A stretch of 64,000 bases of DNA. It comes from Alphaproteobacteria bacterium (GTDB lineage: Bacteria; Pseudomonadota; Alphaproteobacteria; UBA7887). The stretch is from NCBI GenBank assembly GCA_965216755.1, contig CBDCGL010000011.1, positions 2,848,001 through 2,912,000 on the forward strand, in the 5' to 3' direction. Below the pieces are notes generated by a model. That model was not told the origin of the DNA, did not search any database, and saw only the letters and a program-made list of their open reading frames with translations. The position numbers and the translations under genes were made by a program. The stretch's first letter is position 1. Every line of letters begins with the position of its first letter. This document shows, one piece after another, positions 19,288 through 31,133 of the stretch.

Positions 19288-19374
19288 CCGACCACTATTC
19301 GTCCCGCTCGTCAAAAGGGTGCAAACCTTTCAAGATAGTTCCTGGCCATTCGCCACACGTTGAAGAGGGCCGCC

Positions 19375-20649
19375 ATGAATCATGTCGTTGTGCGCCTTGC
19401 GTTGCTGTTGACCCTGGGTTGGGCGACGGATGGTCCGGTCATGGCCCAGGAACCACGGATCGCCTTGGTGATCGGCAATTCGGGTTATGTCGCCATTCCG
19501 GCGCTCGCCAATCCGAAGAACGACGCCGCGTTGATCGGCGGCGCCTTGCGCGATGTCGGTTTTGACGTGGCCCTGATCACCGATGCCGACCGCGCCACCA
19601 TGGCGCGCGAGATCGCGGCGTTCGGCCGACGCTTGGAAAGTGCCGGACGTGGCGCCGTTGGTCTGTTTTATTTCGCCGGCCACGGGGTCGAAGCGGCCGG
19701 TATCAACTATCTTTTGCCGATCGGCGGCGCCATTCAAACCGAAGCCGACCTTTATGGCGAGGCCATCAGCGCCTCGTGGGTGCTCGGGCAGATGGAATAC
19801 GCCGCCAACGACCTGAACATCATCGTGTTGGACGCCTGCCGCAACAATCCGTTCAAGCGCTCATTCCGCGCCGTCAGCAATGGCTTGGCGCGCATGGACG
19901 CGCCGCGCGGCTCGTTGCTCGCCTATGCGGCCGCGCCGGGTCAGCTGGCCGAAGACGGTCTGGGAGCCAATTCAACCTATTCCTTGGCGCTGGCCAATGC
20001 GATCGCCACGCCGGGGTTGAAACTGGAGGATGTGTTCAAGCAGGTGCGGGTCAAGGTGGAAACGGTGACGCAGATCGGCCAGACACCCTGGGAAGAAAGC
20101 TCGTTGCGGGGCGATTTCTATTTCATCGCGCCAGAGGTCAATATCACGATCAACCCGACGCCACCGCCGGCCGGCCCCAGTGACGACGCGCTCTATTGGC
20201 AATCGATCAAGGATAGCGACGACCCGGCGCTTTACGCGCTTTATCTAGAGCAGTTCCCCGATGGCACATTCGCCGATTTGGCGCGCTACAAGCTCGACAA
20301 CCTCCGCCCCACGGCCGACGAAAAGGCCGCGCCGTCGCCACCGCGCGCAGGTCCCGTCACTGTTGCCCAGACCAGCCGCTATCTCGGCCAAGACGACGCA
20401 GGCGACGGCCGCTGGGCGTGGGAAATCCATCTAGAGGACACGGCCGCCAGTCTCGACCAGGTCCGAAACGTCACATATTACTTGCACCCGACCTTTCCCA
20501 ATCCGCGCCGGCAAGTCAGCGACCGCGCAAGCGGATTTCAGCTTGAAACCAGCGGTTGGGGCACGTTTATGGTCGAGTTGGATATTCAGTTTGCCGATGG
20601 GCGGGTTGAACGGCGCCATCACCAATTGGTATTCGACACCGAGCGGTAA
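19375..20649 (+). CDS. secreted caspase-family (C14) peptidase with C-terminal prokaryotic YEATS domain
   Basis: Signal peptide; RIALVIGNSGY, FYFAGHG (His) and IVLDACRNNP (Cys); C-terminal VTYYLHPTFPNP...TSGWGTF. Confidence 0.88.
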   Translation: MNHVVVRLALLLTLGWATDGPVMAQEPRIALVIGNSGYVAIPALANPKNDAALIGGALRDVGFDVALITDADRATMAREIAAFGRRLESAGRGAVGLFYFAGHGVEAAGINYLLPIGGAIQTEADLYGEAISASWVLGQMEYAANDLNIIVLDACRNNPFKRSFRAVSNGLARMDAPRGSLLAYAAAPGQLAEDGLGANSTYSLALANAIATPGLKLEDVFKQVRVKVETVTQIGQTPWEESSLRGDFYFIAPEVNITINPTPPPAGPSDDALYWQSIKDSDDPALYALYLEQFPDGTFADLARYKLDNLRPTADEKAAPSPPRAGPVTVAQTSRYLGQDDAGDGRWAWEIHLEDTAASLDQVRNVTYYLHPTFPNPRRQVSDRASGFQLETSGWGTFMVELDIQFADGRVERRHHQLVFDTER

Positions 20650-20661
20650 CCACGACCGGCG

Positions 20662-21219
20662 TCAGTAATCGCCTTTTTTGCCAACGCCGATGAAATTGAA
20701 CGTGCCGGTATAGACGATCGGGTCCCACCACGACGCAACGCCGGTCTCTTCATCGGTGTGGCGCATGAAATGTTCGCCCGCCGGCGGCCGGATCTCGAAC
20801 GACACCTCGTAGGTGCCGGGTCCGTCGAGCGCGACATTGACGCCGTAATGTGGCCCGTCGGACGCGACCATGGGATGCAGCATGCCCGATGTGGTCCAAT
20901 CGCTGCCCTCCCTGCGCAAGGCAAAGCCAATGGAAAGATAAGGAATCCAGTCGCCGGCTCCGAACCCGTTGGGGTTACCGTCGAGCGCGTGAATATCGGC
21001 TTCGAGATGAATATCGGTCGCGGTGGCGTCTTGGGCGGCCATCGCCGGTTCCATTTCCACCGGCTGCAAATAAATGCCGGCGATCTCCATGCCAGCGACC
21101 TCGACCGGGTCACCAGCCGGGAATTCGTCGGCGACGGCCGCGCCGCCAAAGGTGACCGCCGCGAGGGCGGCCGCCGGCCACCGGTTAAGCACCATCATCT
21201 TGCGCATTTTTGTTTTCAT
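20662..21219 (-). CDS. periplasmic Fe2+/Cu-binding protein, P19/Tp34/FtrA family
   Basis: YLQPVEMEP, IHLEADIHA, NGFGAGDWIPYL, PMVASDGPHYG and RHTDEETGV motifs; signal peptide. Start is an estimate. Confidence 0.92.
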   Translation of the reverse strand: MKTKMRKMMVLNRWPAAALAAVTFGGAAVADEFPAGDPVEVAGMEIAGIYLQPVEMEPAMAAQDATATDIHLEADIHALDGNPNGFGAGDWIPYLSIGFALRREGSDWTTSGMLHPMVASDGPHYGVNVALDGPGTYEVSFEIRPPAGEHFMRHTDEETGVASWWDPIVYTGTFNFIGVGKKGDY

Positions 21220-21269
21220 ACCATTCATAGCCGTGATTGCTAAATCGATAGCCGTGTAACCAAACATGC

Positions 21270-22730
21270 TCAGGTCGCCAGGATCGCCGGATACCAGGCT
21301 AGGCCTACCAAGAGGCTGCCCAGCACACCGGGCAGCAAAGGCATCCAGCGGCGATTCTTGGCCACGTCTTGACGGGCGAGCAGTTGGCTGGCGAGCCGCG
21401 CACTCCAGGCGCCGCTCAGCACCAGCAAGCCGACCTTGAGCGCGCGAATGGCATCATCGCCAAGGCCCAGCGCGGCGAGGCCAGAAAACAGGTCGCCACC
21501 GAGACCGAGCAGCAACGACACCATGGCGATGGGCAGAAACTGATAGCCGAGTTCAACAAAGCGTTGGCGCGCACCACCGCTGCCGCCGGCGCGACCCGAC
21601 AACCACGCGGCCAGTGCCGTGACACCGCCAAGCACGACAACCGCGGCGACCGTCCAGGCAAGCATATAACCGGTGATCAAGAAGAAATCGAACCAGCGAA
21701 ACACCTCGCGCGCCTCGGGATAGACCGCCATCAACCAAATCGGCCCAGCCTCACCGAGCCAGTACCAGCCGCGTTCGATGATCCAATTGCCGAGGGCCAT
21801 GCGCAGGCTTTGGTAGGACTCAAGAACCAGCCACATAAATCCGCCTAGGGCCGTGCCGGTGCCAATGAACAGAAACAGCACTTCCGCCAGATTGGCGTTG
21901 TGGTCGCGGACATTGGCGACCTCGGTGCCGGGCGCACGCAGTTTCAGATACAAACCGCCCTTGGCTTGCGGGCTTACGCAGCGGAAACATTCGATGCAGT
22001 GGCGCGACTCGGTCTTACGATCCAGGTCGATCATGGTCGGGCAGGCGGTGCGTTCAGTCCATGCATCGCCGCCAGACCGTGGCCGCTTCGGATGAAAATC
22101 GACGGCGCCGATGCGCGAGTACACACCGAGCAACAGGCCGATCGGGCACATGTGGCGACACCATGCACGCTTGCTGCGCCCGTAAAGCAAGCCAAGCCCC
22201 ACCGCGGCGACCAACACCGCGCCAAAGACAATGGCCATAGCCGGGGCGTGATCACGGGCCCCGGCGGTCTGTGCCCATATTGTGACGATAACGAAGCTGA
22301 CAATCGGCGTCCCCGGCCATTGCACCCAAGCCGGAATGGCGCGCCGCAAGCCGCGTGCGTTGGCCCACTCGGACGCCGCGCCCATGGGGCATAGCAGCCC
22401 ACACCAGCTGCGGCCGGTGACAATCACCGACAGAAACACCAACGGGAACCACACCGTCCACATGGCGACATTAGCGAACACAGCGATATGGTCCAGTGGG
22501 CCGTCGCCGCTGGCCGGCGTTTCAAACGCCAGCGGGACAAACAGCAGCCCCATAAACAGGGCGAACATGCCGATGTGGACCAGCGTCAGCCAATCCCGGT
22601 AGGCGACAAAGAACCTTTCGATCCGCGCCGCCAAGCCCGGCCACAAGCCATCCCGTCGAAGGGCCGTCGGCAAACGACCCACCTTCGCAACAGGCTGTAC
22701 AGCAATGGTTCTTGCGGCTTCCGCGGCCAC
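21270..22730 (-). CDS. membrane polyferredoxin, FtrD/NapH-like 4Fe-4S protein
   Basis: GRSWCGLLCPMG, WCRHMCPIG, CPT and CIECFRC motifs; multiple TM helices; adjacent to the P19 gene. Confidence 0.88.
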   Translation of the reverse strand: MAAEAARTIAVQPVAKVGRLPTALRRDGLWPGLAARIERFFVAYRDWLTLVHIGMFALFMGLLFVPLAFETPASGDGPLDHIAVFANVAMWTVWFPLVFLSVIVTGRSWCGLLCPMGAASEWANARGLRRAIPAWVQWPGTPIVSFVIVTIWAQTAGARDHAPAMAIVFGAVLVAAVGLGLLYGRSKRAWCRHMCPIGLLLGVYSRIGAVDFHPKRPRSGGDAWTERTACPTMIDLDRKTESRHCIECFRCVSPQAKGGLYLKLRAPGTEVANVRDHNANLAEVLFLFIGTGTALGGFMWLVLESYQSLRMALGNWIIERGWYWLGEAGPIWLMAVYPEAREVFRWFDFFLITGYMLAWTVAAVVVLGGVTALAAWLSGRAGGSGGARQRFVELGYQFLPIAMVSLLLGLGGDLFSGLAALGLGDDAIRALKVGLLVLSGAWSARLASQLLARQDVAKNRRWMPLLPGVLGSLLVGLAWYPAILAT

Positions 22731-24065: not shown

Positions 24066-25253
24066 TTGAACGCACCGGGCTCACACAACTTCGACGCACG
24101 CCGGGGACGGTATGAGATTACCGCGATCGGTGGGGAAAAAGTGCGGGCGTTCGTGCCACCGCCATTGCCGCCCAGCCCGCCCATCGACCTTAATCCATTT
24201 GCACAGCTGATCGAGCAGGCAAATCGCGCACTCGGACGGCTAGAGGGGGTCGCCGCCACCCTCCCCGATGCGCAGCTATTCTTGTACATGTACGTCCGCA
24301 AGGAAGCCTTGCTTTCGTCCCAGATTGAGGGCACGCAGTCATCGCTTTCCGATTTATTGCTGTTTGAGACGTTACATGAGCCCGAATCCGCGTCGCACGA
24401 TGTCGTCGATGTTTCAAGATATGTCGCGGCTATGAATTACGGCCTCGCACGGCTGGAGAACAATTTACCACTCTCGCTGCGGCTCCTTCGGGAGGTCCAT
24501 GGCGTCCTTCTCTCCGAAGGCCGAGGCAGCGAAAAAACGCCCGGCGAATTTCGGCGTAGCCAAAATTGGATCGGTGGCAGCCGGCCGAGTGCGGCACTCT
24601 ATGTGCCACCGCCTCATCACCTCGTGATTGAATGCCTCGGCGACTTAGAGCGCTTCATGCACGCAGACACCGCACCGATGCCCTTGTTGGTCAAAGCTGG
24701 ATTGGTCCACGTGCAATTCGAATCGATACATCCTTTCTTGGATGGGAATGGTCGTCTCGGCCGTTTGCTCATCACGTTGATGCTGTGCGCGGAGGGCGTC
24801 CTCTCAGACCCTCTGTTGTATCTGAGTCTTTATTTCAAAACCCACCGCGACCGCTACTATGCGTTGTTGCAAAGGGTCCGTGAGCACGGCGATTGGGAAA
24901 GCTGGGTCGAGTTTTTTCTCACGGGGGTCAGAGACACATCTAATCAGGCCGCCGACACGGCGCGACGCATCCTGGGACTTTTTGCCCATCATCGCGATTT
25001 GATCCAAACGTTGGGACGACCGGCGCCCTCCGCACTCCGCGCGCATGACTACTTGCAGAAAAGCCCGCTGACCACGATTCCGAACATGGTTCGAGACCTC
25101 GGCATCACACATCCGACAGCAACCCGTTCGCTTGAAAACCTCCAAGAACTTGGCATTGTTCGTGAGATTTCGGGTCGCTCGCGGTTTCGCATTTACGCCT
25201 ATACCGAGTATCTCGCCATTCTCAACGAAGGGGCCGAACCACTACCTAGGTAG
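24066..25253 (+). CDS. Fic-family protein (N-terminal inhibitory motif, C-terminal HTH)
   Basis: HPFLDGNGRLGR Fic motif, SSQIEG inhibitory motif and C-terminal winged-HTH-like segment (LGITHPTATRSLENLQELGIV); TTG start. Confidence 0.93.
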   Translation: MNAPGSHNFDARRGRYEITAIGGEKVRAFVPPPLPPSPPIDLNPFAQLIEQANRALGRLEGVAATLPDAQLFLYMYVRKEALLSSQIEGTQSSLSDLLLFETLHEPESASHDVVDVSRYVAAMNYGLARLENNLPLSLRLLREVHGVLLSEGRGSEKTPGEFRRSQNWIGGSRPSAALYVPPPHHLVIECLGDLERFMHADTAPMPLLVKAGLVHVQFESIHPFLDGNGRLGRLLITLMLCAEGVLSDPLLYLSLYFKTHRDRYYALLQRVREHGDWESWVEFFLTGVRDTSNQAADTARRILGLFAHHRDLIQTLGRPAPSALRAHDYLQKSPLTTIPNMVRDLGITHPTATRSLENLQELGIVREISGRSRFRIYAYTEYLAILNEGAEPLPR

Positions 25254-30449: not shown

Positions 30450-31133
30450 ATGCGGCGCCTCTGGGTTCCATTTGCCATTGCCGGGGCTATTGCTGTCGTC
30501 GCGCTTTTCGCCTTCTCGCGTCTGAACCCGGGCGCGCTCAATGACGGCGACAATGTTACCCGGTTGATTTGGGCCGCGGGCGTGTTGGTGTTGATCGGCC
30601 CCTTCGCATTCTCCGGTGGCCTGTCACGAACATTGCGCCAACTTGCGCAATGGGCGGTGGTCTTGGCGGCGCTGACCATCGGCTATCAAATCTGGCAGGA
30701 TGGTGGATTTTCCTGGGCGGGCCTGCGCGCCGCGTTCAGCCCACAGCTGGACAGCGCGGACCAAGCCGGCATTGCCCAGTTTCGCGCCAACAGTTTGGGC
30801 GAGTTTGTCGTCGAAGGAGATATCAACGGCACCCGCGTCATGTTCTTGGTCGATACCGGCGCGAGCGACCTGGTGTTGGCGCCGCGCGATGCCGAGCGCG
30901 TTGGCTTTGATCTGGCCACACTCGACTATCCGCGGGTCTACGACACCGCCAGTGGCACGGTCCGGGCCGCGCCGGTCCGTTTGGACCAGGTCAGTGTGGG
31001 CGGCGTCGCGGTCGACAATGTGCGCGCGGCCGTGTCGAGCTTCAATATGGACACGTCACTACTCGGCATGAGTTTCATCAACCGCTTGTCGGGGTTCGAA
31101 TTGCGCAATGGCGTGCTGACCCTGCACCAATAG
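30450..31133 (+). CDS. membrane-anchored clan AA (retropepsin-like, TIGR02281) aspartic protease
   Basis: N-terminal TM helices, FLVDTGAS and SLLGMSF motifs. Confidence 0.9.
   Translation: MRRLWVPFAIAGAIAVVALFAFSRLNPGALNDGDNVTRLIWAAGVLVLIGPFAFSGGLSRTLRQLAQWAVVLAALTIGYQIWQDGGFSWAGLRAAFSPQLDSADQAGIAQFRANSLGEFVVEGDINGTRVMFLVDTGASDLVLAPRDAERVGFDLATLDYPRVYDTASGTVRAAPVRLDQVSVGGVAVDNVRAAVSSFNMDTSLLGMSFINRLSGFELRNGVLTLHQ

Follow-up and report, generated by a model that had tools for sequence, protein, structure and literature searches.

A predicted exported caspase-family protease with a prokaryotic YEATS domain in its variable C-terminal position

Introduction

In the genome of an alphaproteobacterium of the UBA7887 lineage (assembly GCA_965216755.1, contig CBDCGL010000011.1), a stretch of 64,000 nucleotides (positions 2,848,001 to 2,912,000, forward strand; here called the window) contains a gene for a 424 amino acid long protein (P0001) at 19375..20649 (+). 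The protein consists of five parts: a predicted signal peptide, a caspase-like Peptidase_C14 (C14) domain, a three-helix module, a Pro-rich linker and a C-terminal prokaryotic YEATS (pYEATS) domain. It belongs to a large family of proteases with an exchangeable last domain, and its variable slot holds pYEATS. The gene is an uncharacterized combination of two catalogued Pfam domains, and that its architecture lies far beyond chance is confirmed by three Pfam matches over the curated cut-offs (Peptidase_C14, PF20305 and PF03366). The protein may act as a Sec-exported, Arg/Lys-specific protease of the caspase/paracaspase type that is aimed by an acyl-amide-binding pYEATS domain; we regard this reading as evenly poised between right and wrong.

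The pYEATS domain and its ligand pocket

The pYEATS family (PF20305) matches amino acids (aa) 348-418 of the protein with 67.7 bits against a cut-off of 26.9 (E 8.4e-19), and the eukaryotic-type YEATS family (PF03366) matches aa 346-421 with 50.8 bits against 22 (E 1.7e-13). In phmmer searches against PDB sequences, the YEATS domain of Taf14 was found at E 6.6e-6 with the whole protein, and the domain alone aligned to Taf14 at E 4.8e-7. An AlphaFold2 model of the last 105 aa, based on a 40-row alignment, is a seven-stranded sandwich with a predicted local distance difference test score (pLDDT) of 93 and a predicted template modeling (TM) score, pTM, of 0.82. The PDB matches listed by Foldseek for this model are YEATS domains throughout (GAS41, Taf14, AF9, ENL and Yaf9), the best being Taf14 with a TM score of 0.77 and a root-mean-square deviation (rmsd) of 2.4 A. 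A preliminary description of the gene, made from the letters of the window, had proposed a YEATS domain with LHxSF and GW/YGxF motifs and had named modeling of the C-terminal ~100 aa as one check. Pfam, AlphaFold2 and Foldseek all bear this proposal out, with motifs of the form LHxT/SF and GWGxF, and since the model yielded the YEATS sandwich, the structural objection raised there falls away.

According to the accessible part of PMC6212594, the acyl-lysine bound by Taf14 sits between W81 and F62, its amide forms hydrogen bonds with the hydroxyl on T61 and with the backbone of W81, and a water molecule bridges it to G82; the WG motif is present in all YEATS domains except those of AF9 and ENL. 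Residues F62, T61, W81 and G82 are all matched in the window protein by F374, T373, W395 and G396. The pocket is not peculiar to this protein, as its residues are kept in both classes, leader-bearing and leaderless, of 206 pYEATS domains; the tryptophan, for example, occurs in 82 of the 101 domains with a leader and in 103 of the 105 without one. Because the aromatic sandwich and the hydrogen-bonding residues of eukaryotic YEATS domains are retained, we infer by analogy that the domain would bind an N-acyl-amide group, either acyl-lysine or a look-alike.

The protease domain

Peptidase_C14 (PF00656) matches the protein with 110.5 bits against a cut-off of 21.4 (E 1.4e-31; aa 28-249 on a 233-position profile). 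The top phmmer match among PDB sequences is the paracaspase MALT1 (E 4.5e-10), and the alignment pairs H103 and C155 with the catalytic residues H415 and C464 of MALT1, and D50 and D153 with D365 and D462. In a 56-row family alignment (A4), H103 and D153 are invariant, while C155, D50 and D194 are conserved in at least 90% of the sequences; D194 is likely the third acidic residue of the S1 pocket. A full-length AlphaFold2 model was built on the same alignment, and Foldseek again places MALT1 first (E 8e-18), with a caspase-only chain (3v4o_A) reaching a TMt of 0.79 and caspases 6, 7, 9 and 11 following at E ~1e-10. In MALT1, D365 and D462, together with E500, hold the P1 Arg, as stated in the accessible part of PMC4626109. 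Judged from its sequence, the window enzyme is probably active, and because D50 and D153 match these P1-Arg anchors, Arg or Lys is most likely the residue at P1.

A protease family with an exchangeable last domain

A search with the full-length protein scored 8,000 candidates, 7,907 of them at E <= 1e-3, and the family therefore comprises at least 7,900 proteins, mostly from Alphaproteobacteria. The 119 best relatives (query excluded) share 43-64% identity with the query along 54-97% of its length, a span that covers the caspase domain and the following helical stretch. The common scaffold of the family consists of a predicted signal peptide, the C14 domain, the helical module and a variable C-terminal domain. 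Precomputed Pfam assignments list pYEATS in none of these 119 nearest homologs. They carry SH3_3 in 14 cases, PF01471 in 13, PF12796 in 13, FGE-sulfatase in nine and Sel1 in five; PDZ, Lcl_C, FecR, OpuAC and others occur as single cases, and many homologs end without a further domain. We take PF01471 to be PG_binding_1 and PF12796 to represent ankyrin repeats. SH3_3, PG_binding_1 and Sel1 are typical of the cell envelope.

The same variation is present within the host genome, which contains six C14 genes and one pYEATS. The five paralogs (L002-L006, G000:C11 near 597878, 768165, 2577255, 2729806 and 4147268) carry SH3_3, SH3_3 with PDZ, no partner domain, SH3_3 with Lcl_C, and Sel1 with a coiled coil. 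Four of them share the scaffold of leader, caspase and helical module, each with a different last domain. In the fifth (L006), Sel1 and the coiled coil precede the caspase domain, which is located at the C-terminal end, and the frame is cut by the start of the locus.

The helical module had no Pfam match at E<=1, but 104 of the 119 nearest homologs and four of the five genomic paralogs contain its motif, compared with none of 119 shuffled sequences. A protein-language-model look-up offered kinship with YfiO as a weak lead (0.79, from a cluster with 10% YfiO members), which was not relied on. An alignment that combined caspase proteins with short pYEATS proteins (A3) was also dropped, because the short pYEATS proteins were misaligned (7-20% identity versus 32-59% in alignment A1).

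Signal peptide and export

The N-terminus can be divided into an n region (MNHVVVR), an h region (LALLLTLGWA) and a c region (TDGPVMA), with V-M-A before Q25 and the sequence continuing as QEPRIALVIGN. The hydrophobic 10-mer has a Kyte-Doolittle value of 2.44, V-M-A directly precedes the first caspase strand, and the full-length model shows a helix at aa 2-17. For this protein and its homologs alike, signal peptides were scored with a heuristic of hydrophobicity and an A-x-A motif, not with a trained predictor. A hydrophobic leader that ends in A-x-A just before the caspase domain is present in 108 of the 119 nearest homologs, for example MRSIHAVLSALCLMLLVSHGAQA followed by EERVALVIGN, and four of the five genomic paralogs show this layout in their open frames. 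Since the pattern extends across the family and the slot holds partner domains of the envelope type, the protein is likely exported via Sec and would be periplasmic or surface-located.

Gene, frame and features

The gene is one uninterrupted frame, and its features are listed in Table 1. The ATG at 19375 is the better start because AAGAGGG lies 6 nt upstream of it; an in-frame TTG at 19360, five codons upstream, is an alternative start that would place AAGAGGG inside the gene. A promoter scan at the gene returned 0 promoter-like sites, and the two terminator-like sites equal the shuffle mean and are both on the opposite strand, inside the gene. GC content varies from 0.555 to 0.68 along the gene without a clear break at the domain junction, and is therefore evidence neither for nor against a recent graft.

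All sequence strings quoted in the preliminary description are present in this single open frame: AGHG (aa 101-104), DACR (aa 153-156), YWQSIK...YLEQFPDG in the helical module (aa 274-297), VTYYLHPTFPNP (aa 366-377) and SGWGTF (aa 393-398). The Pro-rich linker named there contains NPTPPPAGP (aa 260-268). Its start at 19375 is preferred here as well, with the support of the Shine-Dalgarno-like site. The C14 domain with a His/Cys dyad agrees with the Pfam match and with the register of H103 and C155, the helical module corresponds to confidently predicted helices, and the proposed signal peptide and export gain plausibility from the leaders of the nearest homologs.

Table 1. Features of the C14-pYEATS gene and its product (window positions; aa numbering of P0001)
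Feature	Position	Strand	Basis
Whole gene (P0001)	19375..20649	+	open reading frame, 424 codons + stop
Shine-Dalgarno-like AAGAGGG	19362..19368	+	read from sequence; 6 nt before ATG
Predicted Sec signal peptide, aa 1-24, MNHVVVRLALLLTLGWATDGPVMA followed by QE	19375..19446	+	hydrophobicity/A-x-A heuristic
Peptidase_C14 (caspase-like) domain, aa 28-249	19456..20121	+	Pfam; MALT1 alignment; pLDDT >90
S1-pocket acidic D50	19522-19524	+	alignment to MALT1 D365
Catalytic H103	19681-19683	+	alignment to MALT1 H415
S1-pocket acidic D153	19831-19833	+	alignment to MALT1 D462
Catalytic C155	19837-19839	+	alignment to MALT1 C464
Pro-rich linker 1, aa 250-269	20122..20181	+	pLDDT 57-77; aa 263-265 below 50
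Three-helix module, aa 270-310, WQSIKDSDDPALYALYLEQFPDG...	20182..20304	+	helices aa 270-278, 284-293, 300-310; pLDDT 94-96
Pro/Ala-rich linker 2, aa 311-328	20305..20358	+	pLDDT <50 at aa 317-326
pYEATS beta-sandwich, aa 329-419	20359..20631	+	AlphaFold2, Foldseek, Pfam (match aa 348-418 = 20416-20628)
Pocket H371	20485-20487	+	Taf14 H59 (phmmer alignment)
Pocket T373, F374	20491-20496	+	Taf14 T61, F62
Pocket W395, G396	20557-20562	+	Taf14 W81, G82
Pocket F398	20566-20568	+	Taf14 F84

Distribution of pYEATS and of the C14-pYEATS fusion

A word-indexed search with the C-terminal region retrieved the query alone among 58 candidates, and an exhaustive search of cluster representatives was used instead. 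With the C-terminal 105 aa, it returned 1,501 representatives at E <= 1e-3, and the architecture and leader counts given here cover the best 149 of them. All 149 contain pYEATS. The domain is joined to TIR_2 in 45, papain C1 in nine, matrixin M10 in three and C14 in one (P0148); further partners are patatin (one), TPR (two), the combination of LRR, CSD and EAD11 (one), TIG (one) and DUF7910 (one). The remaining 85 are pYEATS-only proteins, many of them tandem pairs.

In 185,579 species genomes, a pattern scan based on the 12-row alignment A2 and sampling YxLHPTFPN as the only one of the pYEATS spellings found 69 loci, which belong to many bacterial phyla and some archaea. The 29 longest open reading frames (ORFs) of these loci were scanned for domains, and L017 and L066 were dropped for internal stops. 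Among the 29 ORFs, three encode C14-pYEATS proteins, two WD40-pYEATS proteins, one a papain-pYEATS protein (Leptospira idonii) and seven TIR fusions. The three C14-pYEATS proteins (L040, L051 and L052) are all from Desulfobacterota, are 549 aa long and bear a signal sequence according to the heuristic. The leader-bearing proteins with a WD40 beta-propeller and a C-terminal pYEATS domain (L045:2543-4312 and L058:3086-4246), encoded in metagenome-assembled genomes (MAGs) of Thermodesulfobacteriota, represent another exported architecture.

The pYEATS domain of P0148 is the nearest to that of the window protein (62% identity), although the two caspase domains are only ~30% identical; for L051, the values are 38% for pYEATS and 25% for the caspase. 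The window caspase is 62-64% identical to relatives that lack pYEATS. Because the caspases of different fusions are thus far more divergent than the window caspase is from relatives without pYEATS, the C14-pYEATS pairing was put together or rebuilt more than once. The accessible part of a 2016 Baltic Sea survey (PMC4933709) lists the architecture 'Metacaspase|YEATS' once in a table.

Two classes of pYEATS and their neighbors

The 149 representatives were divided into two classes by the presence of a hydrophobic 10-mer within the first 40 aa. Leader-positive were all nine papain C1 fusions, two of the three matrixin M10 fusions, the single C14 fusion, the single DUF7910 protein and 42 of the 85 pYEATS-only proteins, whereas none of the 45 TIR fusions and none of the five TPR, TIG, LRR and patatin proteins had a leader. 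For the peptidase-pYEATS fusions (papain, matrixin and C14) taken together, this amounts to a hydrophobic N-terminus in 12 of 13. On a FastTree phylogeny of 206 pYEATS domains, the leader label requires 20 changes compared with a shuffled mean of 69, and none of 500 shuffles was as low; the tree has few supported branches, and the classes are not clean clades. By these sequence criteria, exported pYEATS domains appear to be recurrently tied to peptidases.

Among 91 neighbor ORFs of 16 leader-bearing loci, no partner is common to the three C14-pYEATS genes (L040, L051 and L052). A conserved operon with a tandem pYEATS gene is present in a Pseudomonadota MAG (L041:243-6941) and a Thiomargarita MAG (L043:241-6941), and additionally encodes two M16 peptidases, an unknown membrane protein of 222-227 aa, a DUF302 protein and a TonB-dependent receptor. 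At L049, a subtilase gene is located near the pYEATS gene.

A gene for a small membrane protein precedes leader-bearing pYEATS genes, whether tandem or single, at several loci (L011, L013, L025, L041:2934-3599, L043:2910-3590 and L079:800-1411). These membrane proteins are 38-53% identical among L011, L013 and L025, and 80% identical between L041 and L043. At L079, the protein ahead of the stand-alone pYEATS has two transmembrane segments and weak matches to the SLATT family (E about 2e-4). In a metagenomic protein of 981 aa (P0218), pYEATS occurs together with LRR repeats, a cold-shock domain and, at the C-terminus, the adaptor domain EAD11, and this architecture ties pYEATS to adaptor-based conflict systems.

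Genomic neighborhood of the window gene

The window gene has no conserved partners. The upstream flank encodes FtsY, IspA, a NUDIX hydrolase, a fatty-acid hydroxylase, a DinG-like helicase, a class I lysyl-tRNA synthetase and a metallo-beta-lactamase (MBL) hydrolase. The latter was matched in only two of 22 same-family genomes, at 44-45% identity, which leaves no conserved locus to compare. Downstream and convergent, a P19-type Fe2+ transport protein (PF10634) is followed by a 486-aa Fer4_5 membrane protein (20662-22730, -), with 12 bp between the stop codons of the window gene and the P19-type gene; another MBL hydrolase, a Fic protein, Hsp33 and arginine-biosynthesis genes are located further downstream. 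Pfam assigned the 18 ORFs at 8660-31133 to housekeeping genes, the Fic protein and a retropepsin-like protein only, and detected no NTPase, TIR, adaptor domain or retroelement among them. The Fic/DOC-family protein with a Fic_N domain is encoded at 24066-25253 (+), about 3.4 kb downstream, and no link to the C14-pYEATS gene was seen. The retropepsin-like aspartyl protease domain (gag-asp_proteas, E 2.4e-25) is part of a 227-aa ORF at 30450-31133 (+).

Possible function and alternative explanations

In the mechanism that we propose, the Sec leader would be removed after VMA24, and a clan-CD cysteine protease would reach the periplasm or the cell surface. The mature protein would resemble beads on a string, in which the C14 domain, a flexible Pro-rich linker, the three-helix module and a second linker are followed by a C-terminal binding domain, and in which the swappable last position of the scaffold is occupied by a prokaryotic YEATS domain. 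The pYEATS domain would clamp an N-acyl-amide group on an envelope or extracellular macromolecule, and its binding would tether the protease to the marked target or aim it there. We infer targeting rather than activation as the role of the domain.

Several points weigh against this proposal. Instead of targeting the protease, pYEATS may activate or inhibit it, and export rests on a heuristic. Regarding the ligand, we know of no established source of acyl-lysine in the periplasm, and the literature searched reports no ligand for any pYEATS. The pYEATS part of the full-length model has a pLDDT of only 39-73, because only five rows of alignment A4 cover the domain. The relatives searched have no ortholog of the gene: pYEATS is absent from all 60 of them, which include 22 from the same family. 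Among 400 other genomes of the same class, three contain pYEATS, none of them fused to C14; the three ORFs encode a metallophosphatase with a weak pYEATS match, a 286-aa protein and a 121-aa stand-alone domain. This distribution argues for a dispensable or niche role of the gene. In addition, pYEATS is also common in leaderless proteins, which account for 45 TIR, one patatin and one EAD11 fusion among the best 149 representatives. The accessible part of a 2026 ParA preprint lists pYEATS as a ligand-binding sensor domain of conflict systems, and because leaderless pYEATS proteins are treated there as immune sensors, the ligand might come from an invader and not be a housekeeping target.

The strongest rival is an envelope-level immune sensor-effector, since pYEATS elsewhere joins TIR, patatin and EAD11 and has been described as a conflict-system sensor. 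The pYEATS domain would then sense an invader molecule in the periplasm and switch on the caspase, which would cleave host or invader proteins and perhaps cause cell death; we consider this unlikely. Caspases are usual effectors of conflict systems according to the accessible part of PMC8195603, PADLOC returned a weak partial caspase match (E 1.9e-8), and the sporadic distribution of the fusion is one often seen for defense genes. A stand-alone pYEATS from the same class follows a protein with two transmembrane segments and weak SLATT matches (E about 2e-4). Yet the NCBIfam model for conflict-type caspases (caspase_w_EACC1) scores 45.1 bits, below its cut-off of 140, and the slot of the caspase family is mostly filled with wall-binding domains. 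No regulatory NTPase, whether STAND or other, neighbors the window gene, nor does a TIR, an EAD, a diversity-generating retroelement or a toxin-antitoxin system, its flanks being the lysyl-tRNA synthetase, the MBL hydrolase and the P19-type iron-uptake pair, and the three other C14-pYEATS loci have no neighbor in common.

The pYEATS domain could also work without an external ligand, either as a regulator that packs on the caspase like the Ig3 domain of MALT1, or as a mere spacer or oligomerization domain. The best matches of the full-length model are indeed MALT1 caspase-Ig3 chains (428-447 aligned columns), and in both architectures a caspase is followed by a beta-sandwich. These alignments have an rmsd of about 22 A, however, and the domain arrangement of MALT1 is therefore not matched; in the model, two low-confidence linkers and the helical module separate the caspase from pYEATS. 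The strict conservation of the pocket in 206 domains would be hard to explain without a pocket ligand, and the slot of the relatives is filled by unrelated binding domains, so that a ligand-free role seems rather improbable to us. Less probable still is the link to a eukaryotic host or prey that the preliminary description had suggested, in which a secreted protein would recognize acylated lysines there, e.g., on histones, and cleave the marked proteins. Yeast Taf14 has an almost identical pocket and a signal peptide is predicted for the window protein, but a Sec leader alone delivers a protein to the periplasm only, and no secretion-system or host-interaction genes are found nearby. Nothing in the neighborhood points to a host or prey, and the idea is not supported. 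Where the genomes that encode close pYEATS domains have names, they belong to free-living bacteria and archaea of the environment, such as Nitrosomonas, Nitrospira, Anaerolineales, Desulfobacterales, Nitrososphaera and Leptospira idonii. The presumably cytoplasmic TIR fusions retain the pocket as well, so that it does not represent an adaptation specific to hosts.

Significance

To our knowledge, the only role established for YEATS domains is the reading of histone acylation in the nucleus. An exported pYEATS domain with the same pocket, joined to proteases from several catalytic classes, would make acyl-amide reading older and broader than chromatin, and would suggest that the envelope or surroundings of bacteria contain an acylated ligand yet to be discovered. 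As a speculation that we consider improbable in its full breadth, the extracytoplasmic YEATS domains of bacteria and archaea could be readers that recognize an acyl-amide mark, such as lysines with fatty or short-chain acyl groups on secreted proteins or an envelope component that is acylated, and pass the molecule that bears it to a peptidase tethered to them or encoded alongside (C14, papain C1, matrixin M10 or M16 pairs). If true, this would be the first case in which the reading of protein acylation is coupled directly to proteolysis, and it would take place in the periplasm; such a reader-protease could serve the turnover of marked proteins or envelope-level immune sensing.

The preliminary description had called prokaryotic YEATS domains functionally uncharacterized, and in agreement with this, no experimental work on any of them was found in the literature searched, which did not include the paper that defined pYEATS; the accessible parts of PMC7159879 and PMC8195603 do not mention the domain. 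The window gene offers a convenient test case, as one gene encodes both an evident catalytic dyad and a small, well-folding reader domain, and the paralogs in the same genome, which have the scaffold in common and carry other C-terminal domains, provide natural controls. Without conserved partners at present, its value lies in the experiment that it makes possible and not in the demonstration of a new principle.

Comparison with known systems

The eukaryotic YEATS readers (Taf14, GAS41/YEATS4, YEATS2 and AF9/ENL) have the same fold as the window domain, with TM scores of up to 0.77, and share with it the LHPTF and GWGxF motifs, the W/F sandwich, the Thr hydroxyl and the WG motif. They differ in being nuclear chromatin proteins that read histone acylation, whereas the window domain is predicted to be exported, is only 24-26% identical to them overall and is joined to a protease. 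MALT1 is the best match to the catalytic domain in both sequence and structure, including all four residues H415, C464, D365 and D462, and also carries a beta-sandwich C-terminal to the caspase domain. This sandwich is Ig3 and not YEATS, and it packs directly on the caspase, while two flexible linkers are predicted to lie between the domains of the window protein. MALT1 is cytoplasmic and is activated inside the CBM signaling complex.

Within prokaryotes, the commonest pYEATS architecture is pYEATS-TIR_2 (PF20305 with PF13676), which has the same domain family and pocket residues. In contrast to the window protein, these proteins lack a predicted signal peptide and are presumably cytoplasmic, their effector is a TIR domain and not a peptidase, and pYEATS is usually N-terminal. 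Closer in architecture are the other C14-pYEATS proteins, P0148 (429 aa, from a metagenome), L040, L051 and L052, which have the same domain order and hydrophobic N-termini, and of which L051 also has the helical module; their caspases are only ~25-30% identical to that of the window, L040 has an additional PEGA domain, and P0148 lacks the helical module. The predicted exported 'caspase family proteins' of alphaproteobacterial type (PF00656; P0002-P0120 and the paralogs of the genome) share with the window protein the predicted signal peptide, C14, the three-helix module, the catalytic His and Cys and the acidic S1 residues, and differ in the last domain, where SH3_3, PG_binding_1, ankyrin, FGE-sulfatase, Sel1, PDZ, Lcl_C or no domain takes the place of pYEATS.

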